Shown here piece after piece: positions 1-23,666 of a DNA stretch of 64,000 nt. Source of the DNA: Bacillus thermozeamaize (GTDB lineage: Bacteria; Bacillota; Bacilli; ZCTH02-B2); assembly GCA_002159075.1 (NCBI GenBank), contig LZRT01000085.1, forward strand, positions 6,177-70,176, read 5' to 3'. The notes under the pieces are model-generated. The model searched no databases and was not told where the DNA came from. It saw only the letters and a list, made by a program, of their open reading frames with translations. The stretch's first letter is position 1; each line of letters starts with the position of its first letter. The translations under genes and the position numbers were made by a program.

Positions 1-350
1 GGAATCGGATTTTGACGGATGGAAAGGGATTGGTCCCGTACCGTACGTTTTATTTGAGCCGAAAGGAATATGTGGACCAACATCCAGACGTGATCAAACA
101 AGTGGTTGAAGAACTGCAAAAGGCGGGCAAACAGATTAACGAGAACCCGCGCGAGGCTGCTGATTTGCTGTCGAAAGCGACAAAAATACCTGTTTCGGTG
201 TGGGAGAAGGTGTTGCATAAAAAGCGGTCGGATGCGAATTTTATGGATCAACAAGCGGTGGATGATTTAGAGGTGCAGGCGGATGATTTTTTGAACATAG
301 GCTTGATAGACAAAAAAGTTCAAGTGGCGGATGCGGTATGGAGACCGTGA
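1..350 (+). CDS. ABC transporter substrate-binding protein, NitT/TauT (SsuA/TauA-like) family; C-terminal fragment, 5' end outside the window
   Basis: ORF runs off the window's left edge. C-terminal sequence pattern is typical of sulfonate/nitrate/taurine-family binding proteins. A NitT/TauT ATPase and permease lie downstream. Confidence 0.45.
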   Translation, partial: NRILTDGKGLVPYRTFYLSRKEYVDQHPDVIKQVVEELQKAGKQINENPREAADLLSKATKIPVSVWEKVLHKKRSDANFMDQQAVDDLEVQADDFLNIGLIDKKVQVADAVWRP

Positions 351-424
351 ATGGTGAATCCGTTCTCCGAAATCATGCGTTCTCCAGTTAAAGAATGATA
401 GTTCCGCTTCGGAGGGAAGACTTC

Positions 425-1612
425 ATGACAAGTTTGAAAGAAGATGCGCCGCTTGTGGGCCTCAAGGTGATTGAATTGGGGCAAATTGCCGCGGGTCCTT
501 TTGCGGGAATGTTGTTGGCCGATCTGGGGGCGGACGTCGTCAAAGTGGAGCGTCCTGATGGAGGCGATGGCATGCGGGGATGGCCGCCATTGATGGAGAA
601 TGAGGATGGGGAGGTATTTAGCGGAAACTTTGCTTCCCTCAATCGAAACAAGCGGAGCATCGCCATTGACCTGAAAGACCCCAATCAGGTGGCCGACTTG
701 AAGGCATTGTGCGCACAAGCGGATGTCTTGATCGAAAATTACAGGCCGGGGGTGTTGCGCCGGCTGGGGCTGGGATATGAAGACTTAAAACACATCAATC
801 CCCGGTTAGTGTATTGTTCCATATCCGGATATGGGCAAACCGGACCATATGCGGGAAAAGGCGCTTTCGACGTGACGGTTCAAGCGATGAGCGGCCTGAT
901 GAGCGTCACGGGCGAAGAAAAGGGATTGCCCGTAAAGTGCGGGGTACCGGTCGGCGACTTTGTCGCTGGGTTGTATGCGGCATACACCATCTTAGCCGCC
1001 TTGAGCAGGGTAAACAGAGACGGGCAAGGGACCTATATTGACTGTTCGATGTTAGGCGGGTTGCTTGGCATCTCTGCATTGCAAACAAGTGAATATTATG
1101 GAACGGGCCAGCCGCCCAGGCGCTTGGGCACGGCTCATCCGCGAAATGCGCCGTATCAAGGGTATGAGGCGAAAGACCGGATGTTCGTCATCGCTGCGGG
1201 AAACGACAAGTTATGGCGCAGTGTCTGCCAAGTGATTGGGAGGCCCGAATTGGCGGACGACGAACGGTTTGCGACCCAGGTGCTGCGCGCCAAGAACCAA
1301 AAGGAATTGACAGCCATCCTCCAGCCCATTTTTGCCACGCGGACGGCAGAGGAGTGGATGGCTGAATTGGAACGCCTTGGCGTTCCTTGCGCGCCTGTGA
1401 ATGATTACCATGAGATTCTGCACGATCCGCATGTTCAAAGCATGGGCATCATTGGGGAACTACACTTGCCGAATGGTGTGGCCACCAAATACGTGGGCTT
1501 TCCAGTCTTGATGAACAACTATACATTTTCGGTATACCGGAACCCGCCCAAACTGGGTGAACATCAGGAAGAAGTATTTCGGGAATGGCTGAAAAAAGCA
1601 GAGCATTCCTGA
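425..1612 (+). CDS. CoA-transferase family III (CaiB/BaiF/formyl-CoA transferase-like)
   Basis: N-terminal motif LKVIELGQIAAGPFAGMLLADLGADVVKVERP is typical of family III CoA transferases. ATG at 425 sits 8 nt after GGAGGG. Length about 395 aa. Confidence 0.8.
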   Translation: MTSLKEDAPLVGLKVIELGQIAAGPFAGMLLADLGADVVKVERPDGGDGMRGWPPLMENEDGEVFSGNFASLNRNKRSIAIDLKDPNQVADLKALCAQADVLIENYRPGVLRRLGLGYEDLKHINPRLVYCSISGYGQTGPYAGKGAFDVTVQAMSGLMSVTGEEKGLPVKCGVPVGDFVAGLYAAYTILAALSRVNRDGQGTYIDCSMLGGLLGISALQTSEYYGTGQPPRRLGTAHPRNAPYQGYEAKDRMFVIAAGNDKLWRSVCQVIGRPELADDERFATQVLRAKNQKELTAILQPIFATRTAEEWMAELERLGVPCAPVNDYHEILHDPHVQSMGIIGELHLPNGVATKYVGFPVLMNNYTFSVYRNPPKLGEHQEEVFREWLKKAEHS

Positions 1613-1726
1613 ATTTATCGTTCTGAATGGGTTGACGGAGAGAGAGGAATCATTTAAGATTCACTATAAACATAGTAATTAAATCGGAATAGTGATATGA
1701 CCGGCAGCGCTGACCGGAAAACCGGA

Positions 1727-1768
1727 GGCCAAATCTTGCTTCATTCGTAAGATTTGGCCGTTTTTATT
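1727..1768 (+). terminator. Rho-independent terminator after the CoA-transferase gene
   Basis: Hairpin ggccaaatctt...aagatttggcc followed by a T-run (gtttttattt). Confidence 0.5.
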
Positions 1769-1817
1769 TCAATTTACGGATGTGAATGGATGATGAACAA
1801 AAAGGGGTGAAGCATGG

Positions 1818-2675
1818 GTGGCGATCGTCTTGCATGAAAAAAGGTTGTCACAGGAAAGGTTGTCACGGGAGAAAATATTGGCCTCAAACTTGACGTTTAC
1901 ATACGGCCAACAGGACATTTTACGAGATATCAGCCTGACTGTACGGGAAGGGGAATTTCTCGTCGTGATGGGACCGAGTGGATGCGGGAAGAGCACCTTG
2001 CTGCGTCTGTTTTCGGGACTCTCGCGGCCACACAAGGGGAAGTTGCTGATTGACGGCCAGCCTGTTACGAGTCCTTCCATAGACAGGGCGATCGTTTTTC
2101 AAGATTATTCTTTGTTTCCCTGGCTGACTGCAAGGGAAAACATTGTGGTTTCACTCAAACAGGTGGTACGGCATGCGAGAAAGAAAAGGGAACTGGCAGC
2201 CTTGGCCGAGGAATATCTTGAACTGGTGCAACTTGGCCACGCGGCCGATCAATATCCTGGACAGCTGTCAGGTGGAATGAAGCAGCGTGTAGCCATTGCA
2301 CGCGCCCTGTCCCAACAACCGGACATCCTGCTCATGGATGAGCCGTTCGGAGCCTTGGATCCGATGACGAGGGTTCATTTGCAGGATTTGCTATGCCGGA
2401 TCTGGGAAGAACGGCGTCAAACCATTGTTTTTGTGACGCATGATGTGGAAGAAGCGATTTACCTGGCCGATCGCATTGTTTTGTTCACGCCAGGCCCTCC
2501 CGGCGAAATTGCTGCGGTTTTGGACATTCCGTTTCCTCGGCCGAGAAACCGGAAAAAGTTGTACCTGACATCCGAATTCGGGAAACTTCGTGACCAGCTT
2601 CTTTCGATGATGAATGAGGCACTATTCTCCAAGCTGGAAGAACCGCCATCGGTTTCCGGGGAGGAATCCATATAA
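1818..2675 (+). CDS. ABC transporter ATP-binding protein (NitT/TauT family, SsuB/TauB-like)
   Basis: Walker [10 protein letters not shown], signature [15 protein letters not shown] and Walker B LLMDEP are present. GTG start sits after GGGGTG. Confidence 0.85.
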
Positions 2676-2696
2676 AAATCCTGAAAGGCAGGAGTG

Positions 2697-3836
2697 ATGG
2701 CATTGAAAGGCAGAATCCTCGTTGCATGGTTTGTCTTGTCACTGATTGGCTTTGTTTTAACAGGATGTGGAGGCAACACGGAACGCACAACGACGGGCGA
2801 AGAGACGCCGGCAGGTCATGAACATGCCGCGCATCCGTCCGACTCCGGTGACCAGGGAGAAAAGAACGGCGCGCCGTATCAATTGCGAGTGGGTTATGCC
2901 ACATCGTTGGGTACACAGCTGGGCTTTATTGCCGAACATGAAGGTTTTTTCAAAGAGGAAAATCTGCAAGTTGATTTTATCCCTTTTCAGACGACGGCAG
3001 ATGGGCTGAATGCCTTGCAGGCAGGCAAGATTGATATCGGCATATCCTTCGGCACGGCCGGGCCTTTGACGTTTATTTCCAAAGGAGCTGATTTCGTCAT
3101 TTTCGGCGGGCACTTGGAAGGCGGAAGTCCGATATTTTCACGTCCTGAAGATCAGGAAAAATATAAAGATATTCAATCTTTCAAGGGGAAAAAGATCGGA
3201 ACCATTCGTTTATATACTGGTGACATCGTGTTCCGTGCGGCGCTGGCTGATGCCGGAATTGACTGGAAAAAGGATGTGGAAATCATCGAATTTAAAAATC
3301 CGTCGATGTTGATTGAAGCGATCAAAGCGCGAAAAGTGGATGTGGGGGTCGGGGCTCCGTCTAATCTGGGGATGGCCGAAGAGGCTGGCTTGGTTGCGGT
3401 GAACTGGAGCAACAATCTCTCCCCCGGACATGTATGTTGCCGTGTCGTGACGCGGGGATCGGAATTAAACGAAAAACAGGAGGCGTACAAACGGTTTGTC
3501 AAGGCGCTGATTAAGGCAGAGCGGGCAAAGGAACTGCAGCCTGAGGTTACGGTGACCGCAAGCCAACCGTATCTGAAAATGGATGAGGACAAGATCAGGG
3601 ACATCGTCTTAGAGCCCCACCAAAACAATGATTCCGATCCAAACAAAAAAGAAGTGGAAAAAATGTGGAGCGCGATGCGACAGATCGGTTATATTCCGGC
3701 GGATGTGTCTGTGCAGCTGGAAAACCACATCAATACCGACTTGTACGCAAAAGCTTTGGATGAATTGCTGAAAGAAAATCCCGGCGATCCTTTCTACCAA
3801 AAGGCAAAAGAACGCTTTGAAAAACAGAATTTGTGA
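2697..3836 (+). CDS. ABC transporter substrate-binding lipoprotein (NitT/TauT family)
   Basis: Signal peptide with lipobox LTGCGG. Periplasmic-binding-protein-like sequence. ATG sits 6 nt after AGGAG. Gene lies between the ATPase and the permease. Confidence 0.75.
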   Translation: MALKGRILVAWFVLSLIGFVLTGCGGNTERTTTGEETPAGHEHAAHPSDSGDQGEKNGAPYQLRVGYATSLGTQLGFIAEHEGFFKEENLQVDFIPFQTTADGLNALQAGKIDIGISFGTAGPLTFISKGADFVIFGGHLEGGSPIFSRPEDQEKYKDIQSFKGKKIGTIRLYTGDIVFRAALADAGIDWKKDVEIIEFKNPSMLIEAIKARKVDVGVGAPSNLGMAEEAGLVAVNWSNNLSPGHVCCRVVTRGSELNEKQEAYKRFVKALIKAERAKELQPEVTVTASQPYLKMDEDKIRDIVLEPHQNNDSDPNKKEVEKMWSAMRQIGYIPADVSVQLENHINTDLYAKALDELLKENPGDPFYQKAKERFEKQNL

Positions 3837-3850
3837 CGGGGGCAAGTGTT

Positions 3851-4612
3851 ATGGCACAGGCTATGGGGAGATATACATGGACTGGCTTGATCATTGTGCT
3901 TTTGTTTGTATTGTGGGAGGTCATGACGCATTTCGGCAAAATTCTAAATCCTGTTCTTTTTCCACGGCCGGTGGAAGTGTTTCGCGCGTTATGGGACAGC
4001 CGGATAGATTTGATGTCTGGTTTTTTGAGCTCGATGAAACTTTTTTTGCCCGCTTTTCTGCTCGCGCTGCTGCTAGGCGTTGCCGGAGGATTATATTTCG
4101 GGATGCACGATAAGGTCAGAGAGATTTTCATGCCGTTTTTTCATACGCTGAGCCCGATTCCTCCAACTATGTACATTCCGTACGCCATCGTATTGCTGCC
4201 CACATTCCAGACGGCATCCATTTTTCTGATCTTTGTCGGGGCTTTTTGGCCCATCTTTTTGGGAACGATTCAAGGGGTCCTGGTTATTGATGGGCGGTAC
4301 CTGGACAATGCGCGCGCTTTGGAATTGCGCGGGAAAGAACTGATCCGGACAGTGGTCTTGCCGGCAAGTATGCCTTTCATTTTGAATGGCACAGGGATTG
4401 CGTTGGGATTCGCGTTCATCGTTCTGACCATCGCAGAAATGTTTGGGGCGAAAGAAGGGATGGGGTACTTCATTCAATATTATTCCGATTTCTCGGATTA
4501 CAAAAATGTAATAGCCGGAATTTTTTTCAACTGCGCTGTGATTCTGTCCATCATGCTTTTGTTTGATCGGATCAAGAGACGATTGCTTTTTTGGACCGGC
4601 GATAAATCCTAA
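3851..4612 (+). CDS. ABC transporter permease (NitT/TauT family, SsuC-like)
   Basis: Six predicted TM helices. BPD-transporter EAA-like region (ELRGKELIRTVVLPASMPFI). Confidence 0.8.
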   Translation: MAQAMGRYTWTGLIIVLLFVLWEVMTHFGKILNPVLFPRPVEVFRALWDSRIDLMSGFLSSMKLFLPAFLLALLLGVAGGLYFGMHDKVREIFMPFFHTLSPIPPTMYIPYAIVLLPTFQTASIFLIFVGAFWPIFLGTIQGVLVIDGRYLDNARALELRGKELIRTVVLPASMPFILNGTGIALGFAFIVLTIAEMFGAKEGMGYFIQYYSDFSDYKNVIAGIFFNCAVILSIMLLFDRIKRRLLFWTGDKS

Positions 4613-4640
4613 CTATCTCAAACAATGGAGGGTGATGCAC

Positions 4641-5225
4641 ATGTCAGGCCATGATGCGTTCCGTGAATTTGATCAATCCTTGCGGGAAGTGCTCCGGAAC
4701 GCAACGGAGGATAAGGAGAGGATTGAAGGCGTGCGGCCTTTGTTGCAGAAATTGCTGTCTGTTCCCGGATTGCTGCCGCCTGCGTACCGTCGGCCTCATG
4801 CCGACAAATATGCCCAATATCTGCTATACAAACCGGAGGATGAAGCTTTTTCCGTCATTGCGTTTGTCTGGGGGCCGGGGCAGCAATCGCCGGTTCATGA
4901 TCACTTGGTCTGGGGACTGGTCGGGATGTATGAAGGCGCGATTGTAGAAAAACGGTTCCGGAGAGTGGATGATGGTTCGGATGCAAGCCGGGCCGTGTTG
5001 GAAGAAATTGAAACGGTGACGGCCAGCGTTGGGGATATTTCTTTTGTTTATCCCCGGCAAGCCGACATTCATCAAGTATTTAATCCGTTTGATGAGGTGG
5101 CCGTTTCGATCCATGTGTACGGCACAGATATCGGCAAGCAGAAACGACACATCTACGATTTGGAGACAGGCTCGATTCGGGAGGTGATTACCCGGCATGA
5201 CAACACGCGGGCCATTTACGCCTGA
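4641..5225 (+). CDS. Cysteine dioxygenase type I-like cupin (thiol dioxygenase; CDO/3-mercaptopropionate dioxygenase family)
   Basis: About 194 aa. HxH (SPVHDH) plus a later His (IHVYG) form the 3-His cupin iron site typical of bacterial CDO homologs. ATG sits 8 nt after GGAGGG. Confidence 0.55.
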   Translation: MSGHDAFREFDQSLREVLRNATEDKERIEGVRPLLQKLLSVPGLLPPAYRRPHADKYAQYLLYKPEDEAFSVIAFVWGPGQQSPVHDHLVWGLVGMYEGAIVEKRFRRVDDGSDASRAVLEEIETVTASVGDISFVYPRQADIHQVFNPFDEVAVSIHVYGTDIGKQKRHIYDLETGSIREVITRHDNTRAIYA

Positions 5226-5282
5226 ACAGAAAGGGTGAAACGATTTCGCCGAAGAATTTTCTGTTGCGAAAGGTGTGTGAAA

Positions 5283-6452
5283 ATGGAGACAATCGTTTCG
5301 TCAACAGATGCATACACAGAGAAAGTGAAACAGTTGGCGAGCGCGTTTGCCCGCACAGCGGCCGAACGGGATCGGCTGGGAGACACCCCTAAGGCAGAAC
5401 GGGATCAACTGCGCGCAAGCGGTTTGCTCAAGTTAATCATTCCTTCACAGTATGGGGGAATGGGAGCGAAATGGCCGGAAGCCCTGTGGGCCGTTCGGGA
5501 AATTGCCAAGGCGGATAGCTCGCTGGCGCATGTTTTCGGTTATCATCATTTGCAATTGGCAACGCCTCATTTCTATGGCACGCCGGCACAGAGGGCGCAT
5601 TATTACAGGGAAACGGCTGCAAAGAACTGGTTTTGGGGGAATGCCATCAATCCGAAAGACACGCGTCTCATTGTGTCCCGTGATGGCGATGGCTACGTCT
5701 TAAACGGCACGAAATATTTTTGTTCAGGCGCGAAAGATTCGGACGTTTTGGTGGTTAGCGCTGTGTCTGACGGAGACAGGAGGCCGCATCTATTTGTCCT
5801 GCCCTCAAATCGCACGGGGATTATTTTTCACGACGACTGGAACGGCATGGGCCAGCGCCAGACGGACAGTGGCAGCGTCAGCTTTCATAGTGTCCGCGTT
5901 CAACCGGACGAACACTTATGCCAGCTGGGGACCAATGGTTCCCCTTTTGCGACGCTGCGTACCGTCCTGACGCAGCTCATCATGACCCATATTTTTGTCG
6001 GCATTGCGGAAGGGGCTTTGGAAGAAGCGAAAAAGTATACGCATCAAACGGCGCATGTGCGAAAAGGAGATGTGCTGGAAGATCCGTATATATTGCGTCA
6101 TTATGGGGAGTTATGGTCCCGGTGCCATGCTGCCGGACAAATCACGAATCATGCTGCGGAGGTTTTCCAGTGGGCCTGGGAACAGCAGTTTGATTTGACA
6201 GATGAACAGAGAGGAAAGGCCGCCGTCACGGTTTATGCCGCCAAAGTCACGGCGATAGAGGTGGCGCTTCATGTGACGAACCGCATGTTTGACGTGATGG
6301 GAGCCCGGGCCGCCGATGAGAAATACCGTTTTGACCGTTATTGGCGAAATATCCGGACGTTTTCATTGCACGACTCCATTGATGTAAAGTTGCGCGAACT
6401 TGGAGCTTATTTTTTAAATGACACGTATCCGGTCAGCGGGTTTTATTCATGA
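5283..6452 (+). CDS. Acyl-CoA dehydrogenase-fold flavin oxidoreductase, SfnB/DszC-like (sulfur-acquisition family) or possibly an acyl-CoA desulfinase
   Basis: N-terminal pattern ERDRLGD...GLLKLIIPSQYGGMG...AVREIAKADSSLAHVFGYHHL matches the SfnB/DszC ACAD-type-2 family. About 389 aa. Embedded in a sulfonate-type ABC locus. Confidence 0.55.
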   Translation: METIVSSTDAYTEKVKQLASAFARTAAERDRLGDTPKAERDQLRASGLLKLIIPSQYGGMGAKWPEALWAVREIAKADSSLAHVFGYHHLQLATPHFYGTPAQRAHYYRETAAKNWFWGNAINPKDTRLIVSRDGDGYVLNGTKYFCSGAKDSDVLVVSAVSDGDRRPHLFVLPSNRTGIIFHDDWNGMGQRQTDSGSVSFHSVRVQPDEHLCQLGTNGSPFATLRTVLTQLIMTHIFVGIAEGALEEAKKYTHQTAHVRKGDVLEDPYILRHYGELWSRCHAAGQITNHAAEVFQWAWEQQFDLTDEQRGKAAVTVYAAKVTAIEVALHVTNRMFDVMGARAADEKYRFDRYWRNIRTFSLHDSIDVKLRELGAYFLNDTYPVSGFYS

Positions 6453-6498
6453 CCTTGTCAGGCGAGGAAATCGTGACTGAGGCGAGGAGGTGCGAGCA

Positions 6499-7284
6499 TT
6501 GAAATCATCTGGTTATGGTGTGCATATAAAAGTGAGGGGAGTAAAGAAAGACTTCGGGAGCCAGCAGGTGCTTCGGGGCATCGAACTCGAGATCCGGCCG
6601 GGAGAGTTTGTGGCGATCATCGGACGGAGCGGGTGCGGAAAAAGCACGTTGTTGCGCCTGATCGCCGGATTGGAAGAGCCGACGGCGGGGGAAATGATGA
6701 TCAACGATGTGCCGGTTCGCGGACTGAATCCGGAAGTGCGCATCATGTTCCAGGATGCCAGGCTCTTGCCCTGGCGGCGGGTGATTGACAATGTGGCCAT
6801 TGGACTGAAAAAAGGAGAGGGCGTGAAAGCGGAGTTGGCTTTGCGGCAGGTTGGCCTTCATGAGCGGGCGAAAGATTGGCCCTCGGTTCTCTCCGGTGGA
6901 CAAAAGCAAAGAGTGGCATTGGCAAGGGCGCTGGCGAGTCAGCCGCGGCTGCTTTTATTGGATGAACCGTTGGGCGCCTTGGACGCGCTGACCCGTATCG
7001 AAATGCAGCGCCTGATCGAGTCGCTCTGGCTGGAGCACAAATTTACAACCGTCCTGATTACGCATGACGTGGAAGAAGCGGTTGTCATGGCTGACCGGGT
7101 GGTTTTAATTGAGCAGGGACGCATCGCGATGGATTTATCGGTTCCATTTTCCCGCCCCCGGCAACGAGGTCATGCGGCGTTTGCGGCGCTTGTCGACAAG
7201 GTGCTCAGGCGCGTGATGGGTGAAGAAGATCAGATGGAAGAAGAGGGGAAAGTGTTGCCAGCCGCTTATGTGGCACAGAAGTAA
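6499..7284 (+). CDS. ABC transporter ATP-binding protein (NitT/TauT family), second copy
   Basis: Walker [10 protein letters not shown], signature [24 protein letters not shown] at 6499 sits 9 nt after GAGGAGG. An in-frame GTG at 6490 is an alternative start. Confidence 0.8.
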
Positions 7285-7363
7285 TGCCAGTTCCTTGGCT
7301 TTTATAATCGAGAACGAAAGATGCAGGAAGTCTATATAACGGTAACATTTACCCGGGTAGCAT

Positions 7364-9553
7364 TTACCCGCTGTGGAAACGCACTTCACCCTGAATCTTG
7401 TATTTTTTGAGCTTTTGGTATAGGGCCGTGCGGCTGATGCCGAGTTTTTGCGCCGCGAGGCTCCGGTTGCCGCCTGCCTGCTCAAGCGCCTGCAGGATGG
7501 CCTGCTTTTCTACATGCGCGAGCAAGTCGCGATGATTGATCGTATGCTGGATGGACGGCTGCAATGGTTCAAAAGATGCCGGTTTGGGCAATCCAGGACT
7601 TTGGATCATTTCCTCAGTCCTTTTTTCTTTTTTTGAGGATCTGGAGAAAGAGGGGGAATGGAGTTCCTGTGGAAGGTGACGGGGTTCAATCCAGGAGCCG
7701 GAACCAAGATGCATGGCCCGTTCCAGGACGTTTTCCAGTTCACGGACATTTCCAGGCCAGGAATGCGCCTGCAGCAGCTGCAGCGTTTCCGGCGTGATGC
7801 CGATGACTTTTTTGTTCATTTTTTGATTTAATTTTTTAATGAAATGCTCGCATAACAGCGGGATATCATCGAGGCGTTCACGCAGCGGCGGAATGGTGAT
7901 TTGGATGACGTTGATCCGGTAGTAGAGATCCTCCCGAAATTTCCCCTCCTTGACCAACTGCCGCAGGTTTTGATTGGTCGCCGCCACAATCCGCACGTCC
8001 ACCGCCCTGGTTTTGGTATCCCCGATCCGCTCAAATTCCTGCTCCTGCAAGACACGAAGCAGTTTGGCCTGTAAAGCCGGTGGCATGTCGCCGATTTCGT
8101 CGAGAAAAAGCGTGCCCCGGTCGGCCAGTTCAAATTTCCCCGGTTTTCCCCCTTTTCGGGCGCCGGTAAAGGCTCCCTCGACGTAACCAAAAAATTCTGC
8201 CTCCAACAATTCGGAAGGAATGGCCGCGCAATTGACCTTAATAAATTTTCCTGTGCGGCCTGATGCCTCGTGAATGGCCTCTGCGAACAGTTCTTTTCCC
8301 GTCCCGCTTTCGCCGCAGATGAGGATGGTAGAGAAGCCTTTGGCGGCGAGGTATGCCTCTTTTTTGACGGAATTCATTTGGCCGTTTTGTGAAACGATCC
8401 GATCAAAAGCGTTTTCCTTTGTAATCCGGTTCAGTTCTCCCCGATAATACGTGAGTTCGCTTTCCAGTTGTTCCAGCCTGCGGAACACATCTTTCCATTG
8501 ATCCAGGCGATGAAAAATCAGTTTCGCAATGACCCCTTCCGATCGCCCTGACTGAACGATCGGGTGCAGGGTGATCACGCATTTCTTCCCCGCGATATCG
8601 CGGATTTCTCCTTCGATCCGCTCTTTTGCAGCCAGCACTTGTTGAACCGGCAGTTCCGGCGCGATGACAGCGGCAGGCCGGCCAACCACTGCTTCGTATT
8701 CAAGTCCATAGAGTTCCAAAAAAGCTGCGTTGACCATCGTGACGATCCCTTGTTCGTCCGTGATCAACACGCCGTCATAGGAGAGGCCCAATGCGCTCTG
8801 CAGGGTCCGTTCCAGTTTTTTTGTCGTTTCCAATTCTTTGGCTACCTGTTCAAAACTGGTGATGTCTTTCAGAACAGCCATGGCCCCCGTGATGTTTCCC
8901 CATTCCCGCAAAGGGATAAAGGATCCAATGACAGTGGCGTTTTTCAGCAGGATCTTTTTGGATTCCCGAACCTCTCCTTGTTCGATGGTAAGGGAAAAAT
9001 CCGCATTTAATTCCGGCAAAATCGCTCCGAGCCAGTTGCCGATCACTTCCTCCCGCGGAATGCCGAACAGCGACTCAGCCGCTTGGTTATACGTGATGAC
9101 CTTGTGTTCCAGGTCTACAGAGAGGACAGCATCCTGCAGGTGTTCCACCAACATGCTGTGCCGAGTGAGGAGCAATTCGGTTTTGTTGAGAAAGCCGCGA
9201 ATGATGTCTGCTTTCCCCAAAACCCCGACCGCACGTTGCTGTTCATCCAGTACGACACCGTGCGCGACGTTGTTTTCGGTGAGAATTTCCCTTGCTCTTT
9301 CGATGGTGGTTTCTTGTGAAAAGCTGACCACTTGTTTCCGAATGGCAGGGGTTACCGGGGAGTCGATGGGCGCTCCGGATAGCAGCGAACGGTAAATCGT
9401 ATATTTGGTCACGATTCCTTCCAATTTTCCTTCGGAATTGACGACGCAGGCAACGTCCGAGCGGTGTTTCAGAAAGGCTTTCAGACAATCGCGCATCGTA
9501 TGACGAGGCGTGATGGAGATAAAGTTGGCCGATAAAAAATCTTTTGTTTTCAT
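7364..9553 (-). CDS. Sigma-54-dependent transcriptional activator (EBP) with N-terminal CBS pair, PAS domains, AAA+ sigma-54 interaction domain and C-terminal Fis-type HTH
   Basis: AAA+ motifs [15 protein letters not shown] and GAFTGA (sigma-54 contact). C-terminal [24 protein letters not shown] start sits 6 nt after GGGAGGTG on the minus strand. Confidence 0.85.
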
Positions 9554-9586
9554 CGTCAACACCTCCCGGATCAGTGTGTTTCTTGG

Positions 9587-9711: not shown

Positions 9712-9774
9712 AAGAAAAAGTGACGAAATGTTGGGGTTGATCAGAACGATTGCCGGAAAGGAGTGGAGGACAGC

Positions 9775-10932
9775 ATGCCTTATCCACCTTACTTTACAGA
9801 GGAACATGATGCGTTTCGGGAAGAGATCCGTCATTTTTTTGCGACAGAGGTGGCTCCATATGCGCCGCAGTGGGAGGAACAAGGGTATTTTCCGCTATCC
9901 ATCCTCCGAAGGATGGGAGAGTTAGGGTACTTGGGCTTGAGTTATCCCGTTGAGGTAGGGGGACGTGGCGGAGATTATTTCATGAGCGTCGTGATGGCAG
10001 AGGAAAAGGCGCGATGTGGCGCAGGAGGATTCGGCATGGCGATCGCCGTCCAGACCGACATGGCCACCCCGCCGATTTACCAATTTGGCACGCCTGAGCA
10101 GATCGAACGCTTTTTGAAACCGGCCATCCGTGGTGAAAAGCTGGCCTGCCTGGGCATTACCGAACCAAACCACGGTTCTGACGTGCAGTCGATCGAGACG
10201 CGTGCCTACCGCGACGGGGATGAGTGGGTGATCAACGGCAGCAAGCTGTACATCACAAATGGCCCCCGGGCCGATTTCATTACGTTGGTGGCCCGCACAT
10301 CCGATGCCCCCGGGTACAAGGGAATCAGCCTGTTTCTTGTCGAACTGGACCGGCCAGGCGTCTCGGTGGCCAAAGTGCTGGACAAGGTGGGAATGCGTTC
10401 CTCCGACACGGCGGAATTGGTGTTCGACAATGTGAGAGTTCCGCATGAAAATTTGCTCGGGGAAGAGGGCAAGGGGTTTTACCAGATTATGTGGGAACTG
10501 CAGGGAGAGCGGGTGATCAGCGCGGCCGGGTCGGTCGGTTCCGCGCAGTATGCCTTTGAGCTGGCCTGCTCATATGCCCAAGGGAGAGCGGTGGCTGGCA
10601 AACCGCTGATCCGGAATCAGGTGATCAGACACATGTTGGCAGAGATGGCGACTGAAATTGAGGCGGTCCGGCAAATGGTGTATGCCACGGCTTACCGGTT
10701 TGCACGGAAAGAAGCCACCCCTTGGGAGATTTCGATGGCCAAGCTGGCCGCTTCGCAACTGGCCCACAAGGTGATCGATCAAACGCTGCAAATCCACGGC
10801 GGAAACGGCTACACCATGGATTATCCGGTGGAGCGGATGTGGCGCGATTCCCGCCTGCCCCGGATTGGCGCCGGAACAGATGAAATCATGAAAGAGATCA
10901 TCGCCAAAGGATTGCACATCATTGAAAGATAG
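9775..10932 (+). CDS. Acyl-CoA dehydrogenase
   Basis: Canonical ACAD N-terminus PYFTEEHDAFREEIRHF. Length 385 aa. Paralog of the ACAD at 40578. ATG follows AAAGGAGTGGAGG. Confidence 0.9.
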   Translation: MPYPPYFTEEHDAFREEIRHFFATEVAPYAPQWEEQGYFPLSILRRMGELGYLGLSYPVEVGGRGGDYFMSVVMAEEKARCGAGGFGMAIAVQTDMATPPIYQFGTPEQIERFLKPAIRGEKLACLGITEPNHGSDVQSIETRAYRDGDEWVINGSKLYITNGPRADFITLVARTSDAPGYKGISLFLVELDRPGVSVAKVLDKVGMRSSDTAELVFDNVRVPHENLLGEEGKGFYQIMWELQGERVISAAGSVGSAQYAFELACSYAQGRAVAGKPLIRNQVIRHMLAEMATEIEAVRQMVYATAYRFARKEATPWEISMAKLAASQLAHKVIDQTLQIHGGNGYTMDYPVERMWRDSRLPRIGAGTDEIMKEIIAKGLHIIER

Positions 10933-10979
10933 TCCTTTGTTGAAAGCGAAACTGCCGAAGATGATTGGAGTTGAGAAGC

Positions 10980-12125
10980 ATGTTTGAGTGGCTGTTTAGG
11001 GAAGAACATCAGATTTTTCGCAAAAGCGTCCGGCGGTTCCTGGAGAAGGAAATCGCGCCCCACGTCGCGGAATGGGAGCGCCAGCGCGCCTTGCCTCGTT
11101 CCGTGTTCAGGCGCTTTGGGGAAATGGGGTTTCTCGGTTTGGCTGTACCCGAACCGGCAGGCGGTGCTGGTGCCGACCCTGTGGCGGAAGCCATTTTTTA
11201 CGAAGAGCTGGGGCGTTACGGGACAGGAGGGGTGGCAGGATCTGTCGGTTATCACGCCGGCTGCGCCCTGCCATTGGTGGCTTCATATGGCGGCACGGAG
11301 CTAAAGGAGCGGTACCTGCAACCGTCCCTTCTCGGTGAGCAGCTTGGCGGACTGGCTCTGAGTGAACCGGAAAGCGGGTCCGAGCCCGGGAAAATCCGGA
11401 CGGTTGCCCGGCGGGATGGCGAGGGGTATCGCATCACTGGCGTCAAGAAATTTGTGACCAATGGCGATAGGGCAGATTGGCTGTGCGTCTCAGCGCGGAT
11501 CGAAGGCCAGGATGAGGTGAGCCTTTTTCTCGTCGACACCCGGGCTGCGGGGGTTGGTCCGAAGCGAAGCTTGCGCACGCTGGGGTGGCGTGCGGCGGGG
11601 CTGGCAGAGGTGGAGATGCATGATGTCGCAGTGCCTGCCAGCCATCTGTTAGGCGGAGAGGGCCAGGGCGAAGCGATCCTCGGCCAGTTCGCTCCGCGGG
11701 AGCAATTGATGCTGGCGCTTTTCTGCATCGGACTGGCCGACGCGGCGCTGGAGGAAACGATTGCCTACAGCAAGCAGAGAAAGCAGTTCAACCGGACCCT
11801 GAACCAGTTTCAGGTCCTGCAGCACAAGATGGTGGATATGGCCGTGGAGAGGGAAAAGGCGCGCCATTTGGCTTACCGGGCTGTCTATCTGCTGCAACAG
11901 GGGCAGGAGGCGGTGACCGTAATTTCCATGGCCAAGGCTTACGCCGGCGAAATGATCAAACAGGTGACCGATGCCGGCGTGCAAATCCATGGCGGGATGG
12001 GATATATGATGGAAACACCGATTCAAAGATATTGGCGGGATGCCCGGGCGCTGTCCATTGCCGGGGGGACGACACAGTCGGTGAGGGAGAAGCTCGCAGA
12101 GAGGCTTCAATTGACAGGGAATTGA
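10980..12125 (+). CDS. Acyl-CoA dehydrogenase (second of a tandem pair)
   Basis: N-terminus MFEWLFREEHQIFRKSVRRFLEKEI. Length 381 aa. Paralog of the ACAD at 41751. Confidence 0.9.
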   Translation: MFEWLFREEHQIFRKSVRRFLEKEIAPHVAEWERQRALPRSVFRRFGEMGFLGLAVPEPAGGAGADPVAEAIFYEELGRYGTGGVAGSVGYHAGCALPLVASYGGTELKERYLQPSLLGEQLGGLALSEPESGSEPGKIRTVARRDGEGYRITGVKKFVTNGDRADWLCVSARIEGQDEVSLFLVDTRAAGVGPKRSLRTLGWRAAGLAEVEMHDVAVPASHLLGGEGQGEAILGQFAPREQLMLALFCIGLADAALEETIAYSKQRKQFNRTLNQFQVLQHKMVDMAVEREKARHLAYRAVYLLQQGQEAVTVISMAKAYAGEMIKQVTDAGVQIHGGMGYMMETPIQRYWRDARALSIAGGTTQSVREKLAERLQLTGN

Positions 12126-12189
12126 TGACAGGGGATGAACCAATGGCCGGATGATGGAACGGAGGCCAACCAGAGAAGGAGGTAGCGGG

Positions 12190-13791
12190 ATGGTTCGCGA
12201 CGATGAGCAACGTGCGAGGAGACGGACGGCAACAGAAGATGCAGCAGATATGACCATTGGAAGCCTGGTCGCTGAACTGGAGGAGAAAAAGGAGCGGATC
12301 CGCCGGGAGATGGGAGGGGCGGCCGCCATCGAACGGCAGCATCAACGGGGCAAGCTGACCGCCCGGGAGCGGATATCGTTGTTGTTTGATCCGGGAACTT
12401 TTGAGGAAATGGGGATTTTGGATTATCAATTGGGGGGCGACCCGGCGAAAACGGCGGCAGACGGTGTGATCACGGGAACCGGGAAGATCCAGGGCCGTCC
12501 TGCCTGTGTGGTGGCGTATGATTTTACGGTGATGGCCGGTTCGATGGGCCGCAGTGGAGGCGTCAAGGCGGCGCGGATGCGGGAGTGGGCGATGAAACAC
12601 CGGATTCCTCTCATCTGGCTGATCGACTCAGCGGGTGCCCGCATCCAGGAGTCGGCGAATTCCCTCTTTGCCCAAACGGGAGACATCTTTTTTGAACAGG
12701 TGATGATGTCCGGCGTGATTCCCCAGGTCTGTGCGGTGATGGGTCCCGGGTTTGCCGGCACCGCGTATATTCCGGCCCTCTCCGACTTCGTGCCGATGGT
12801 CAAGGGAACCAGCTTTTTGGGGCTGGGCGGCCCGCCTTTGGTCAAGGCGGCGATTGGAGAGGAGATCAGTGAGGAAGAGCTGGGAGGGAGCCGGATCCAC
12901 TGCGAGATTTCGGGAGTCGGAGATCTGGAGGTGGAGGATGATGCGGCCTGCATCCAGGCGGTGCGGGATTACCTGAGTTACTTTCCCCTGAATTGTCAGG
13001 AGCTGCCGCCTGTCCTCCCCACAGATGATCCGATTGACCGGTCCTGTGAGCGGATCAGTGAATTAGTGCCGTTGGCCACCAACAAGCCGTTCGACATGTT
13101 GGAACTTATCCGGGAGATCGTGGATCATGGCCAGGTGTTTGAAATCAAGCCGAAGTGGGCGCGCAACATGATCACAGCGCTCGCCCGGATTGGCGGCCAT
13201 TCGGTGGGGATCGTCGCCAACCAGCCGAAATGGATGGGAGGAGCCATCGATGTCAACGCTTCGGACAAGGCGGCGAGGTTCATCAATCTCTGTGACGCGT
13301 TCAACATTCCGTTGCTGTTTCTGGTCGACACGCCTGCCTTTTTGATCGGATCGGCGGTGGAGAAGGCCGGGATCATCCGGCACGGGGCCAAATTTTTGCA
13401 CGCCACTGCCTCCGCCACGGTGCCCAAGTTTACGGTCGTCGTGCGCAAGGCGTTTGGCGCCGGATATTACGTGATGAACGGCAGGGCCTATGAGCCGGAC
13501 CTGTTTGTCGCCTATCCCAACGCCCAAATCAGTTTGATGGGTGCCGAAGGAGCGGTAAACATCATTTTTCGCCGCGAAATCGCGCAGGCAGAAGATCCGG
13601 AGGCCCGCCGCAGGGAATTGATCGAAGAGTATCGGCGCCGGATCTCGACAGATATGGTGGCCGGTGCGGCACTTGTGGATGAGATCATCAACCCGGCGGA
13701 TACCCGTCGCATCCTGGCTTCTGCCCTGGAAAGAACGCGGGGCAAACATGTGGAACGCCCCTGGAAAAGGCGCCCTGTCCTGCCGGTCTAG
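12190..13791 (+). CDS. Acyl-CoA carboxylase carboxyltransferase subunit (propionyl-CoA/methylcrotonyl-CoA carboxylase beta-like)
   Basis: PccB-like N-terminus (ELEEKKERIRREMGGAAAIERQHQRGKLTARERISLLFD). Length about 530 aa. ATG at 12190 sits 7 nt after AGGAGG; the N-terminus could alternatively start at 12250. Confidence 0.8.
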   Translation: MVRDDEQRARRRTATEDAADMTIGSLVAELEEKKERIRREMGGAAAIERQHQRGKLTARERISLLFDPGTFEEMGILDYQLGGDPAKTAADGVITGTGKIQGRPACVVAYDFTVMAGSMGRSGGVKAARMREWAMKHRIPLIWLIDSAGARIQESANSLFAQTGDIFFEQVMMSGVIPQVCAVMGPGFAGTAYIPALSDFVPMVKGTSFLGLGGPPLVKAAIGEEISEEELGGSRIHCEISGVGDLEVEDDAACIQAVRDYLSYFPLNCQELPPVLPTDDPIDRSCERISELVPLATNKPFDMLELIREIVDHGQVFEIKPKWARNMITALARIGGHSVGIVANQPKWMGGAIDVNASDKAARFINLCDAFNIPLLFLVDTPAFLIGSAVEKAGIIRHGAKFLHATASATVPKFTVVVRKAFGAGYYVMNGRAYEPDLFVAYPNAQISLMGAEGAVNIIFRREIAQAEDPEARRRELIEEYRRRISTDMVAGAALVDEIINPADTRRILASALERTRGKHVERPWKRRPVLPV

Positions 13792-13825
13792 CTTTCAGTG
13801 CAGTCTGAGCGAAAGGAGGGAGCGG

Positions 13826-15421: not shown

Positions 15422-15494
15422 CGCCATCGACGGGTTTTCCATCAGATGTTGCAAGAAATGACGAAGACAGAGCGGAAGAAGGGGGAGTGAAAAG

Positions 15495-16634: not shown

Positions 16635-16719
16635 GGGATCACTGAGAACCCTGATCATGCACGTGAATGGGGAGAATAAGTGGCTGACCAGGTAAGCTGC
16701 AAACCGGTTTAGGAGGAAA

Positions 16720-17244
16720 ATGATGAGAACATTCGCTCTGATTATCCGACGGCTCAATGAAGCGATGATGTGGGTGGTTGGTATATTGATTCTGATCATG
16801 GGGTTGACGCTTTTCTATGACGTAATGATGCGTTATTTTTTCAAGGCGCCAACGGCCTGGTCTTTTGATTTGGCAGGCTGGTTTACCGGGTTGTCCGCTT
16901 TTTTGGCGGGTGGCTACGCGTTGTTGAAAAAGGCTCATATCCGCGTCGATATTTTTTACCAGAAGTTTTCTCCGAGGGTACAGGGGGGGCTGGACGCTCT
17001 GACCTCTGTATTCCTCTTTCTCATCGTACTGATCCTGGTTTGGAAAGGCGGGGAGCGAACCCTGCACAACTTGAATATCGGCGCCGTAGCCAACACCGGG
17101 CTGAACATCTACATCTGGATCAAGTGGCTGATGGTACCTCTTGGAGGGGTGTTGTTGGGCTTGCAGGCCATCGTGAACCTGGTAGATGATGTATACCTCT
17201 TTATCACTGGCAGACATCTCATCGATGTGGCGGAGGATGGTTGA
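16720..17244 (+). CDS. TRAP transporter small permease (DctQ)
   Basis: About 174 aa with four TM helices. ATG follows AGGAGG. Positioned between the DctP and DctM genes. Confidence 0.8.
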   Translation: MMRTFALIIRRLNEAMMWVVGILILIMGLTLFYDVMMRYFFKAPTAWSFDLAGWFTGLSAFLAGGYALLKKAHIRVDIFYQKFSPRVQGGLDALTSVFLFLIVLILVWKGGERTLHNLNIGAVANTGLNIYIWIKWLMVPLGGVLLGLQAIVNLVDDVYLFITGRHLIDVAEDG

Positions 17245-17246
17245 TC

Positions 17247-18563: not shown

Positions 18564-18700
18564 GCCTGCGCCGATACCGGGCGTCAAATGGTTTCTGGAA
18601 GCAGCATTGGCGACGAAGGACGGAACCCAGCTTTTATCAATACGGATGATGGATGGGGAGGGATGGGCCTGTGTTGGATCTGGGAGGGATTGGCCAATGG

Positions 18701-20233: not shown

Positions 20234-20247
20234 AGGAGGATGGCAGA

Positions 20248-21012: not shown

Positions 21013-21104
21013 ACAGCCGGCGGGCGGACAGTTGGATATACGATGTACAAAAGATGTACGAAAAAGGATGGTGGCGTTGGCAATGGGCTGGCGGGGGAGA
21101 GGGC

Positions 21105-21137
21105 ATGAAAAACATGAAACATGAAAAACATGAAATG
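21105..21137. repeat. Short tandem repeat (CATGAAA/CATGAAAAA)x4
   Basis: gcatgaaaaacatgaaacatgaaaaacatgaaatg lies immediately upstream of the ACAD start. Confidence 0.5.
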
Positions 21138-21162
21138 CGTGCGAGAGAAGGGAGGTTCTGGA

Positions 21163-22344: not shown

Positions 22345-22374
22345 GCGAGAGGAGTCACAAGGAGGTGGAAAGGG

Positions 22375-23634: not shown

Positions 23635-23666
23635 TTGTCGACAAAACCGTGGAGAGGGGAGAAAAC

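Follow-up and report, generated by a model that had tools for sequence, protein, structure and literature searches.

Gene content and organization of the locus

The first 7,284 nucleotides of the DNA stretch analyzed here (the window; 64,000 nucleotides in all) make up the 3' two-thirds of a gene cluster of about 12.6 kb. The genome, labelled 'Bacillus thermozeamaize', is a MAG of a thermophilic member of the Bacillaceae. The window edge cuts the locus short, and a further 5.4 kb upstream can be read from another assembly of this organism (L001), which differed at 6 of 15,000 overlapping bases compared. This upstream part carries an OscA-like DUF2292 gene and genes for an SsuE FMN reductase, SsuC, a glutaredoxin-like protein, an SsuD-like monooxygenase, and full-length SsuA. 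All eight open reading frames named in an earlier note on this DNA exist, their positions agreeing with that note exactly or to within a few codons, and have strong family matches. The features of the window are as follows.

3..350, + strand: 3' end of ssuA, aliphatic-sulfonate ABC substrate-binding protein (TIGR01728, NF008588; full gene at 4706-5710 of L001)
425..1612, + strand: class III (CaiB/BaiF) CoA-transferase, dicarboxylate type (PF02515, 434 bits, full length)
1629..1660, + strand: promoter-like site of the second transcription unit (GGGTTGACG as -35, 17 nt, TAAGAT as -10)
1705..1735, + strand: conserved leader hairpin, GCUGA-CCGG-AAAA-CCGG-AGGC (covariance model R1, 34.9 bits, E 1.7e-7)
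1727..1769, + strand: intrinsic terminator or attenuator (13-bp stem at 1727-1759, then T-run GTTTTTATTT)
1878..2675 (alternative GTG start 1818), + strand: ABC ATPase of the module importer, NitT/TauT family (PF00005)
2703..3836 (alternative start 2694), + strand: lipoprotein substrate-binding protein (SBP) of the module importer, NMT1/SsuA-like, divergent (PF09084, PF13379, lipobox LTGC)
3851..4612 (alternative start 3833), + strand: permease of the module importer (PF00528)
4641..5225, + strand: Gln-type thiol dioxygenase, 3-mercaptopropionate dioxygenase-like (MDO; PF05995, PDB matches, residues)
5283..6452, + strand: MsuC-like ACAD-fold flavin monooxygenase, candidate sulfinate-to-sulfonate monooxygenase (MsuC 6U76 match)
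6499..7284 (alternative start 6490), + strand: ssuB, canonical sulfonate importer ATPase, last gene of the operon (NF008420)

The genes fall into two transcription units; the CoA-transferase and the first ATPase are 265 bp apart, and this spacer contains the promoter-like site and the terminator. Unit 1 reads oscA-like, ssuE, ssuC, grx-like, ssuD-like LLM, ssuA, and class III CoA-transferase; after the promoter and attenuator, unit 2 reads ABC ATPase, lipoprotein SBP, permease, MDO, MsuC-like gene, and ssuB, followed by a weak terminator-like site (7286-7299) and a convergent gene. The cluster is a mosaic: among the canonical ssu genes lies a recurrent set, here called the MDO module, which comprises MDO, the CoA-transferase, the MsuC-like enzyme, Grx, and a divergent SsuD-like LLM and brings an ABC importer of its own.

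Among the ssu-type proteins, full-length SsuA (238.7 bits, cutoff 163.5) and SsuE (217 bits, cutoff 164) exceed their model cutoffs, SsuB scores 347 bits against NF008420 (cutoff 395), and the OscA-like 'sulfur starvation response' protein gave 42 bits (E 7e-11). The NitT/TauT-type parts recognized in the earlier note, namely two ATPases, a lipoprotein SBP, a permease, and an SBP fragment, are all present with family matches. The module ATPase, whose start at 1878 follows the L001 gene call and is preceded by a GGGAG ribosome-binding site, scores exactly at the TIGR01184 cutoff (291.8 bits), and the permease resembles TauC, NtrB, and SaoP, each below cutoff. The module SBP falls under the SsuA_fam cutoff (95.7 bits, cutoff 163.5), and a search for solved relatives returned no informative one from which its ligand could be inferred. 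The SsuD-like LLM reaches 347 bits (cutoff 518), with E. coli SsuD and MsuD as best PDB matches. Scores below the NCBIfam curated cutoffs suggest that the MsuC-like, SsuD-like, and SBP proteins may act on substrates differing from those of the named families.

A consensus scan placed the promoter-like site of unit 2 as TTGACG-17-TAAGAT at 1632-1660; the -35 box is invariant relative to the ssuE promoters of L001 and of a related Bacillaceae locus (L084). The leader hairpin model found 18 matches in Bacillales loci, with 96.6% of cells paired and compensatory changes in 6 of 7 pairs, and has no match in Rfam. The terminator architecture of unit 2 recurs upstream of ssuE in L001, L084, and another relative (L087), and the hairpin-plus-terminator leader RNA lies upstream of both transcription units as well as other Bacillales sulfur operons. 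Because promoter, hairpin, and terminator of the same type precede both units, joint control is implied. Furthermore, the 3' strand of the extended hairpin stem (1727-1729) overlaps the terminator base, making the hairpin a candidate antiterminator or regulator-binding element.

Enzymes and conservation of the MDO module

The proposal that the cupin is a thiol dioxygenase was borne out. It matches the CDO family (PF05995, 26.4 bits, cutoff 23), and its best PDB matches (6XB9, 4QMA, and 4TLF; E 1e-33 to 5e-31) include its best solved relatives, the 3-mercaptopropionate dioxygenases of Azotobacter (6XB9, E 1e-33) and Pseudomonas (4TLF, E 5e-31). The three histidines (His86, His88, and His144) and the Ser156-His158-Tyr160 set are present, and Arg169 aligns with the carboxylate-binding Arg168. 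Gln59 occupies the Gln/Arg discriminator position; the enzyme is Gln-type and 3MDO-like. Except for Ser156, these key residues are invariant across a 29-sequence alignment.

The ACAD-fold protein had been proposed to be a 3-sulfinopropionyl-CoA desulfinase (Acd), a role that we reject. It reaches only 82 bits against the 3-sulfinopropanoyl-CoA desulfinase model NF042439 (cutoff 600), whereas it matches MsuC (6U76) over its full length with 399 bits and 50.1% identity over 377 residues. Model scores for DszC (340 bits) and SfnB (259 bits) place it likewise with the flavin monooxygenases acting on non-CoA substrates, a grouping that the earlier note itself had set against an Acd role. None of the other ACADs of the window reaches the 600-bit cutoff, the best scoring 267 bits. 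MsuC converts sulfinate to sulfonate using FMNH2 supplied by a shared FMN reductase; the Acinetobacter baylyi enzyme has a very low kcat and is dispensable (PMC13352529).

The CoA-transferase scores best among NCBIfam models with succinate--glutarate CoA-transferase (379 bits, under the cutoff of 750) and among PDB entries with SUGCT (9BR6 and 4ED9), and it has an Asp at 178 within a GVPVGD motif. Its suspected link to mdo is upheld by other genomes, where homologs with 50-67% identity adjoin mdo in 24 of 67 loci. With at least 45% identity required, a homolog lies no more than 300 bp from mdo in seven of the nine Bacillales genomes (within 2 kb in all nine) and in 17/58 non-Bacillales genomes, mostly Proteobacteria. 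The CoA-transferase is mdo's most conserved partner, with the tightest linkage across phyla. It falls within the mdo-linked clade and is a candidate Act-like sulfino-/sulfo-propionate CoA-transferase.

In relatives, the FMN reductase, Grx, LLM, CoA-transferase, ABC importer, MDO, and MsuC-like genes are kept as one operon, the module SBP (56-75% identity) co-occurring with the MDO and MsuC-like genes. L087 represents a minimal version (FMN reductase, Grx, LLM, CoA-transferase, ATPase, SBP, permease, MDO, and MsuC-like gene, without SsuABC). L084, from Bacillaceae G1, adds to the same set a canonical SsuD (621 bits, cutoff 518) and has a CoA-transferase-to-ATPase gap of 40 bp. In Paenibacillus and Bacillus loci, LLM, MDO, and CoA-transferase recur with or without the importer and the MsuC-like gene, and SsuD-type genes stand beside mdo in 8 of 58 non-Bacillales loci (e.g., Pseudomonas).

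Proposed function and alternatives

These genes form the closing part of a larger sulfur-starvation (Ssu-type) operon, whose probable role is to release sulfur from mercapto-acids, 3-mercaptopropionate being one example, by oxidizing them step by step. We favor, with some reservation, sulfur scavenging from thiol to sulfinate to sulfonate to sulfite, plus a possible CoA-transferase branch. Under sulfur limitation, the module importer would bring in a mercapto-carboxylate, for instance 3-mercaptopropionate; if the disulfide were taken up instead, its reduction would fall to the glutaredoxin-like protein. MDO, whose family and active-site residues are evident, would dioxygenate the thiol to the sulfinate (presumably 3-sulfinopropionate), and the MsuC-like monooxygenase, given its identity to MsuC, would use FMNH2 from SsuE to convert the sulfinate to a sulfonate. 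The SsuD-like monooxygenase, also with FMNH2, would then cut the C-S bond and free sulfite for assimilation. The CoA-transferase would most likely activate a succinate-like sulfino- or sulfo-acid with CoA, as Act does, which would open either a CoA-dependent branch running in parallel or a route for carbon salvage; the locus holds no downstream partner for it. Several observations count against this reading: a CoA-transferase, although mdo's most conserved partner, is superfluous to a purely FMNH2-dependent route, and in 17 of 58 non-Bacillales loci it accompanies mdo with neither an LLM nor an MsuC-like gene; in four Paenibacillus loci that have MDO and CoA-transferase, a close SsuD-like gene is missing within 10 kb; the MsuC-like, SsuD-like, and SBP proteins score below the curated cutoffs; and A. 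baylyi MsuC has a low kcat and is dispensable.

In a second explanation, which we consider rather unlikely, scavenging runs through CoA: 3-sulfinopropionyl-CoA would be formed by MDO and the CoA-transferase, a desulfinase or lyase encoded elsewhere would free sulfite, and the MsuC-like, SsuD-like, and importer proteins would handle other generic sulfinates and sulfonates, merely co-regulated. MDO and CoA-transferase do form the invariant core, present in 9 of 9 Bacillales loci and 17 of 58 others, the LLM and MsuC-like genes occurring less consistently. The pathway genes of Variovorax TBEA6 (act, VPARA_05450; acdA, VPARA_05440; mdo, VPARA_05600) and of Advenella, where CoA activation proceeds via SucCD, are likewise not all adjacent (PMC6370202, PMC5373536). 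However, neither the 64 kb downstream nor the 5 kb upstream yielded a desulfinase candidate, and the thermophilic clade interleaves LLM, MsuC-like gene, and importer with mdo and CoA-transferase in one tight operon, which argues for a shared substrate.

Alternatively, the locus could serve thiol detoxification or homeostasis, removing toxic endogenous or environmental 3-mercaptopropionate with sulfur recovery as a by-product. A Pseudomonas protegens 3mdo mutant over-accumulates endogenous 3-MPA (PMC12947264), 3MP and mercaptosuccinate stress Advenella (PMC5373536), and redox proteins (Grx-like, Redoxin) accompany the module. We nevertheless regard this as improbable, since the module has a high-affinity ABC importer dedicated to it and is tightly integrated with ssuE, ssuD-like, ssuABC, and OscA-like genes, features that point to acquisition rather than removal.

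The main proposal of the earlier note, carbon- and energy-yielding catabolism in which Mdo forms 3-sulfinopropionate, Act its CoA thioester, and the ACAD-fold enzyme propionyl-CoA and sulfite for downstream carboxylases, fares worst and appears very improbable: its dioxygenase type and its mdo-linked CoA-transferase of the succinate/glutarate class stood, and the Mdo/Act/AcdA logic is well known from Variovorax and Advenella (PMC6370202, PMC5373536), but the desulfinase did not hold and the propionyl-CoA feed finds no support. Downstream, the acyl-CoA and carboxylase genes belong to an Atu/Liu-like cluster (AtuA, carboxyltransferase, ligases, and TRAP transporter) that begins beside a divergent sigma-54 activator gene separating it from the MDO locus, and in the closest relative unrelated genes follow the locus. 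This cluster is sigma-54-controlled and unrelated to the MDO locus. FMNH2-consuming oxygenases, moreover, typify sulfur assimilation rather than the use of growth substrates. With no Acd-type desulfinase in the window and the genes set among ssuE, ssuD-like, and ssuABC, we reject carbon catabolism; the sulfur-acquisition locus that the same note had offered as its alternative fits better.

Comparison with known systems

Two features are shared with 3MP/DTDP/TDP catabolism in Variovorax paradoxus TBEA6 and Advenella mimigardefordensis DPN7: the thiol dioxygenase is Gln-type and 3MDO-like, and mdo is genetically linked to a CoA-transferase of class III, dicarboxylate type. The locus differs in having an MsuC-like ACAD-fold protein in place of the AcdA/Acd desulfinase, an ssu and FMN-reductase context instead of propionyl-CoA or methylcitrate genes, an ABC importer where TTT or TRAP systems were proposed for Variovorax, and a Gram-positive host. 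With the dimethylsulfone pathway of Pseudomonas and Acinetobacter baylyi (SfnG, MsuC, MsuD/SsuD, and MsuE reductase) it has in common an MsuC-type monooxygenase (50% identity), an SsuD/MsuD-type desulfonating LLM, a single shared FMN reductase, and a role in sulfur assimilation. Here, however, the sulfinate would come from a thiol via an iron dioxygenase and not from a sulfone via SfnG, the LLM is a divergent paralog, and a CoA-transferase and dedicated importer are added.

A leader terminator is also present in the Bacillus subtilis ssu operon. The conserved 5'-leader hairpin overlapping the base of an intrinsic terminator recalls RAT/terminator antitermination of the BglG/LicT/SacY type, although the element is unrelated in sequence, the hairpin is much smaller, and no PRD-type antiterminator gene lies nearby. 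Finally, as in ssuEADCB of E. coli and ssuBACD of B. subtilis, homologs of SsuE, SsuA, SsuB, and SsuC accompany an SsuD-family monooxygenase, but six extra genes are interleaved with the canonical ones, and the module paralog stands in for canonical SsuD, while the relative G1 retains both.

Gene content of the sulfur locus and its relatives

Each gene that the earlier note had described was recovered by six-frame ORF listing and by Pfam and NCBIfam scans. Intergenic spacing is 14-57 bp from the first ATPase through ssuB, and the 265-bp gap between the CoA-transferase and that ATPase holds a promoter-like site and an intrinsic terminator with a 13-bp stem.

Genes of the sulfur locus (window coordinates)
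3-350: SsuA-type substrate-binding protein (SBP) fragment, matching TIGR01728 and NF008588
425-1612: class III CoA-transferase (PF02515, 434 bits)
1818 or 1878-2675: NitT/TauT-type ABC ATPase (PF00005)
2694 or 2703-3836: lipoprotein SBP, NMT1/SsuA-like
3833 or 3851-4612: permease (PF00528)
4641-5225: cysteine dioxygenase (CDO)-family cupin (PF05995)
5283-6452: ACAD-fold protein, MsuC-like
6490 or 6499-7284: SsuB-like ATPase (NF008420, 347 bits against a cutoff of 395)

A second assembly of the same organism (L001), with 6 differences in the 15,000 overlapping bases compared, reaches 5,360 bp further upstream. The ssu genes found there make the window locus the 3' two-thirds of an ssu-type cluster.

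Genes in the 5,360-bp upstream stretch (L001 coordinates where listed)
Upstream stretch: MFS transporter
1263-1454: OscA-like small DUF2292 protein (42 bits, E 7e-11, below the OscA-model cutoff of 85)
1710-2267: SsuE FMN reductase (TIGR03567, 217 bits, cutoff 164)
Upstream stretch: SsuC-like permease
Upstream stretch: glutaredoxin-like protein (Grx)
Upstream stretch: SsuD-family luciferase-like monooxygenase (LLM; 347 bits, cutoff 518; closest PDB entries E. coli SsuD and MsuD)
Upstream stretch: full-length SsuA (239 bits against 163.5)

SsuE, SsuA, SsuB, SsuC and an SsuD-family monooxygenase thus lie together in one cluster; SsuE and SsuA pass their curated cutoffs, and SsuB and the LLM are best matches to their families yet score below cutoff.

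Related loci separate two sets of genes. In a metagenomic relative (L087), whose dioxygenase is 72% identical to that of the window, a compact operon carries an FMN reductase, Grx, LLM, CoA-transferase, ATPase, SBP, permease, dioxygenase and MsuC-like gene, and no SsuABC was found in it. Bacillaceae bacterium G1 (L084; dioxygenase 71% identical) has the same gene set interleaved with SsuC, SsuB and SsuA, and just 40 bp separate its CoA-transferase from the ATPase. This locus also encodes a canonical SsuD (2456-3595; 621 bits, cutoff 518) alongside a divergent LLM (4669-5799) that is 81% identical to the LLM of the window organism (~347 bits). This makes the module LLM a separate paralog, probably with a sulfonate substrate of its own. 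Paenibacillus naphthalenovorans (L086) shows the order LysR, SsuA, glutaconate-type CoA-transferase subunits A and B, LLM, dioxygenase, class III CoA-transferase, ATPase, SBP, permease, MsuC-like protein, Redoxin, β-hydroxyacid dehydrogenase and Grx, and two Bacillus loci (L007 and L010) have an operon of CoA-transferase, enoyl-CoA hydratase (ECH)-like gene and ssuBDAC divergent from mdo, the dioxygenase gene. From these gene orders, the window locus is a mosaic in which canonical ssu genes are combined with a recurrent "MDO module." No informative solved homolog of the module SBP was found from which to infer its ligand.

The thiol dioxygenase, the MsuC-like protein and a proposed oxidation chain

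The cupin, which has an identical counterpart in the MAG "Bacillus thermozeamaize" (Bacillaceae), has as its nearest solved structures the 3-mercaptopropionate dioxygenase (3MDO) of Azotobacter (6XB9, 1e-33), the Gln-type enzyme of Ralstonia (4QMA, 1e-32) and Pseudomonas 3MDO (4TLF, 5e-31), against 1e-12 for mercaptosuccinate dioxygenase (MSDO; 8VNI) and 1e-4 or weaker for true CDOs. By alignment, its 3-His iron site comprises His86 and His88 (HDH) and His144, corresponding to His89/91/142 of Pa3MDO, and its outer-sphere motif is Ser156-Ile-His158-Val-Tyr160, corresponding to Ser155-His157-Tyr159. The earlier note had pointed to a Gln-versus-Arg residue as the discriminator between enzyme types, and here it reads Gln: Gln59 (YAQYLL) occupies the Gln62/63 position, replacing the Arg found at CDO Arg60, and Arg169 (KRHIY) aligns with the relocated carboxylate-binding Arg168. 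The 3-His site, Ser-His-Tyr motif, Gln-type marker and Arg168 have all been described for Av3MDO and Pa3MDO (PMC8050391). Across an alignment of 29 homologs, the three His ligands, His158, Tyr160, Gln59 and Arg169 are invariant and Ser156 alone varies. On every sequence criterion, then, the cupin is a 3MDO-type enzyme (hereafter MDO).

The ACAD-fold protein had been read in the earlier note as an Acd-type desulfinase releasing sulfite from 3-sulfinopropionyl-CoA. Its best PDB match is MsuC of Pseudomonas fluorescens (6U76; 50.1% identity over 377/389 residues, 399 bits, E 1.5e-118), followed by DszC and TdsC (307-313 bits), with genuine acyl-CoA dehydrogenases at 81 bits or less; CoA-thioester-binding ACADs are thus not its nearest relatives among PDB entries. 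NCBIfam models for DszC (NF043015, 340 bits against 850) and SfnB (TIGR04022, 259 against 430.9) fall short of their cutoffs, as does that for 3-sulfinopropanoyl-CoA desulfinase (NF042439, 81.8 bits against 600). We assign the protein to the MsuC/SfnB/DszC group, as neither an SfnB nor a DszC equivalog, and a partner NAD(P)H:FMN reductase, SsuE, is encoded in the same locus. Grouping with MsuC at so low a desulfinase score is the outcome that the earlier note itself had named as refuting a desulfinase, and that assignment is withdrawn. Other ACADs in the window, considered as the missing desulfinase, scored 183-267 bits against 600, fit other ACAD families better and were rejected. The ACAD-fold proteins adjoining mdo in Variovorax and Pseudomonas ssu contexts (L059, L041) are uninformative because the desulfinase and SfnB models score them equally weakly (both 100-115 bits). 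MsuC catalyzes an FMNH2-dependent sulfinate-to-sulfonate step, and in Pseudomonas and Acinetobacter a single reductase serves both MsuC and the desulfonating enzyme; the authors of that work suspect that methanesulfinate is not the preferred organosulfur substrate of MsuC (PMC13352529).

Drawing on family assignments, active-site residues, operon structure and gene linkage, all observed directly, we favor with moderate confidence a sulfur-scavenging oxidation chain from thiol through sulfinate and sulfonate to sulfite. Under sulfur limitation, the module importer would take up a mercapto-carboxylate such as 3-mercaptopropionate, or its disulfide, which the Grx-like protein would reduce; MDO would oxidize the thiol to the sulfinate, the MsuC-like enzyme would convert the sulfinate to the sulfonate with FMNH2 from SsuE, and the SsuD-like LLM would release sulfite. 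Each of these enzyme families is known. In the open-access literature searched, we found no description of their combination or of its setting in a Gram-positive with an ABC importer, and nothing relevant on MDO in Gram-positives or on a thiol dioxygenase together with SsuD, MsuC or SfnB. To our knowledge, 3MDO-type thiol dioxygenases have been studied chiefly as enzymes, and their sole established physiological role is in a few Betaproteobacteria that use xenobiotic thioethers and disulfides as carbon sources. Here, such an enzyme is predicted to sit in a sulfur-starvation operon beside a sulfinate monooxygenase and a desulfonating monooxygenase, which yields a simple route, open to testing, by which sulfur could be recovered from natural thiols such as 3-mercaptopropionate. 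If true, the chain would also offer a plausible native substrate class for MsuC-type enzymes, of interest because activity on methanesulfinate is poor.

A leader RNA in Bacillales sulfur-scavenging operons

The same three features, a -35 box (GGGTTGACG), a -10 box and a leader, mark the ssuE promoter regions in L001, in G1 and in L087 as well as window positions 1625-1780. The presence of the same control region on both transcription units argues for one regulon. The leader ends in a small hairpin of ~31 nt (consensus GCYGA-CNNG-N4-CNNG-AGGC) that abuts a strong intrinsic terminator (window 1705-1769). Searching 15 Bacillales sources (14 loci and the window; 328 kb) first by regex and then with a covariance model gave 18 copies at E<0.01; across 15 mdo loci from Proteobacteria, the model had no match at E<0.1.

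Leader copies
L001 (second assembly): 1472-1502, 1628-1700, 7065-7135
L084 (Bacillaceae bacterium G1): 1597, 1740
L087 (metagenomic relative): 2032, 2200
L009 (Paenibacillus): 1480
L010 (Bacillus sp. SA1-12): 2112, 6093, 9799, 11676, 19189 (minus strand)
L007 (Bacillus): 9744 (minus strand)
L086 (P. naphthalenovorans): 4939, 6081
L088 (Paenibacillus): 5624

Copies precede ssuE, the module ATPase (window, L009), ssuB and the MsuC-like gene (L010), the CoA-transferase operon (L007, L010) and Paenibacillus operons, and they also directly follow the OscA-like gene. In the alignment of the 18 copies, which was fitted to the model and drawn partly from a regex requiring the inner stem, 96.6% of cells are paired, 6/7 pairs show compensatory changes and the covariation score was reached by 0/500 shuffles. 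The 3' strand of the extended hairpin stem (window 1727-1729) is also the base of the terminator stem beside the U-tract; stabilization of the hairpin should therefore impair termination, by a RAT-like logic. A known riboswitch in the 1613-1877 gap was considered and rejected: Rfam gave no match there at gathering thresholds, and the four weak family matches that appeared when E was relaxed to 10 (E 1.8-4.5, far under gathering scores) were taken as chance. In seven related loci, Rfam found no leader family; the lone match was an unrelated SAM riboswitch (RF00162, 81 bits) at L010 10886-10976, directly downstream of mdo, which sets that mdo in a methionine/sulfur neighborhood.

In Bacillaceae and Paenibacillaceae sulfur-scavenging operons, the leader appears to be an antitermination or attenuation element not described before, and we know of no explanation so far for ssu operon antitermination in Bacillales. 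Together with the OscA-like gene, this common element is an indirect hint that the cluster may be derepressed under sulfate or cysteine limitation. Homologs of the OscA-like gene lie at L084 1309-1566 and around L087 1832-1999. The gene has its own promoter. Immediately after it comes one leader hairpin with terminator, and beyond this the promoter and leader of ssuE, an order reminiscent of an antiterminator gene that sits in front of the target it controls; that the OscA-like protein might act in trans is pure speculation.

A possible CoA-transferase branch and alternative readings

The class III CoA-transferase covers PF02515 from position 1 to 366 of 366 and has a GVPVGD motif with Asp at 178, which we take to be the counterpart of catalytic Asp169 of Frc. 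It is dicarboxylate-type: its best model is succinate--glutarate CoA-transferase (379 bits, under the 750 cutoff), and its best structures are SUGCT and 4ED9. Linkage to mdo was counted in 80 loci, one genome per species, fetched with an mdo profile and annotated by tblastn, with counts limited to the 67 having at least 1.6 kb on each side of mdo (9 Bacillales; 58 others, mostly Proteobacteria). A CoA-transferase homolog with at least 45% identity lay no more than 300 bp from mdo in 24/67 loci, and class III paralogs unlinked to mdo in the same loci were just 32-43% identical.

Genes linked to mdo (Bacillales; others)
CoA-transferase homolog, at least 45% identity, within 300 bp: 7/9 (9 within 2 kb); 17/58
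SsuD-like, at least 35% identity, within 5 kb: 5/9; 8/58
MsuC-like, at least 40% identity, within 10 kb: 3/9; 0/58

An ECH-family gene comes next in 16/17 of the non-Bacillales loci where a CoA-transferase adjoins mdo. The conserved linkage makes mdo and the CoA-transferase a real two-gene module. Because the gene accompanies mdo even without an LLM or MsuC-like gene, the enzyme most likely acts on the MDO product, a succinate analogue. It would be a candidate for an Act-like role giving a CoA branch, with the sulfite-releasing partner absent from this locus. The Mdo-to-Act logic of the earlier note accordingly holds as far as the gene coupling goes and breaks at the Acd step, the ACAD-fold protein being MsuC-like. 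Sulfur scavenging chiefly through the CoA branch, which has this coupling behind it and lacks that partner here, we consider unlikely, and thiol detoxification by the same genes improbable.

Least probable of all, and very doubtful, is the carbon-catabolic reading of the earlier note, in which Mdo, Act and Acd would degrade 3-mercaptopropionate and propionyl-CoA would feed the downstream carboxylases: we found no evidence of such flow, and the downstream genes are Atu/Liu-like. The locus is followed on the minus strand (7364-9562) by a CBS-PAS sigma-54 activator gene, PrdR-like by NCBIfam although below cutoff. Beside this divergently transcribed gene begins a cluster (9763-25883) of ACADs, a carboxyltransferase, two acyl-CoA ligases, a TRAP transporter, enoyl-CoA hydratases and AtuA, which is an Atu/Liu-like branched-acid catabolic cluster unrelated to the sulfur locus. 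Downstream of the G1 locus, unlike in the window, are isocitrate/isopropylmalate-dehydrogenase-family and fumarase genes. Elsewhere in the window, four tRNA genes cluster at 58714-59204, and segments 26001-28000 (0.42) and 62001-64000 (0.37) are low in G+C against a typical window range of ~0.50-0.59.

Returning to the oxidation chain, we tentatively suggest a joint reading in which the MDO module is an undescribed Gram-positive sulfur assimilation route with an Acd-independent CoA branch and a new leader-RNA switch. Mercapto-acids or their disulfides would be its source compounds, handled by the importer, Grx, thiol dioxygenase, MsuC-like enzyme, divergent SsuD-like desulfonase and CoA-transferase; the widespread mdo/CoA-transferase pair would mark the CoA branch; and a leader RNA whose hairpin overlaps the terminator, specific to sulfur-scavenging operons of Bacillales, would switch the whole regulon. 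The value of the finding would rise with confirmation of the thiol-to-sulfite chain, of the mdo/CoA-transferase branch, whose gene pair occurs in about a third of mdo loci and in two phyla, or of the recurrent leader RNA, a further handle on Bacillales sulfur regulation.

Two further arrangements of the pair were observed. In Paenibacillus (L086 7300-11797, L088 7210-11839, and L002, L003, L005, L006, L008 and L009), two different CoA-transferases flank mdo: subunits A and B of a glutaconate-type family I enzyme lie upstream, and the class III enzyme lies on the downstream side, whether or not an SsuD-like LLM is present. A widespread betaproteobacterial operon (L011, L016, L047 and others) comprises the class III CoA-transferase, mdo and an ECH-family gene, sometimes with an AhpD-like gene, and in many cases an IclR regulator and TctC genes accompany it; in Variovorax (L082 8833-11717, L083 8792-11819), CoA-transferase, mdo, ECH and an AhpD-like gene stand behind an IclR regulator. 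No Acd-type desulfinase or LLM was found near this operon. It differs from the published arrangement in strain TBEA6, where act and acdA (VPARA_05450, 05440) do not adjoin mdo (VPARA_05600) (PMC6370202); in Advenella, SucCD takes the place of Act (PMC5373536).
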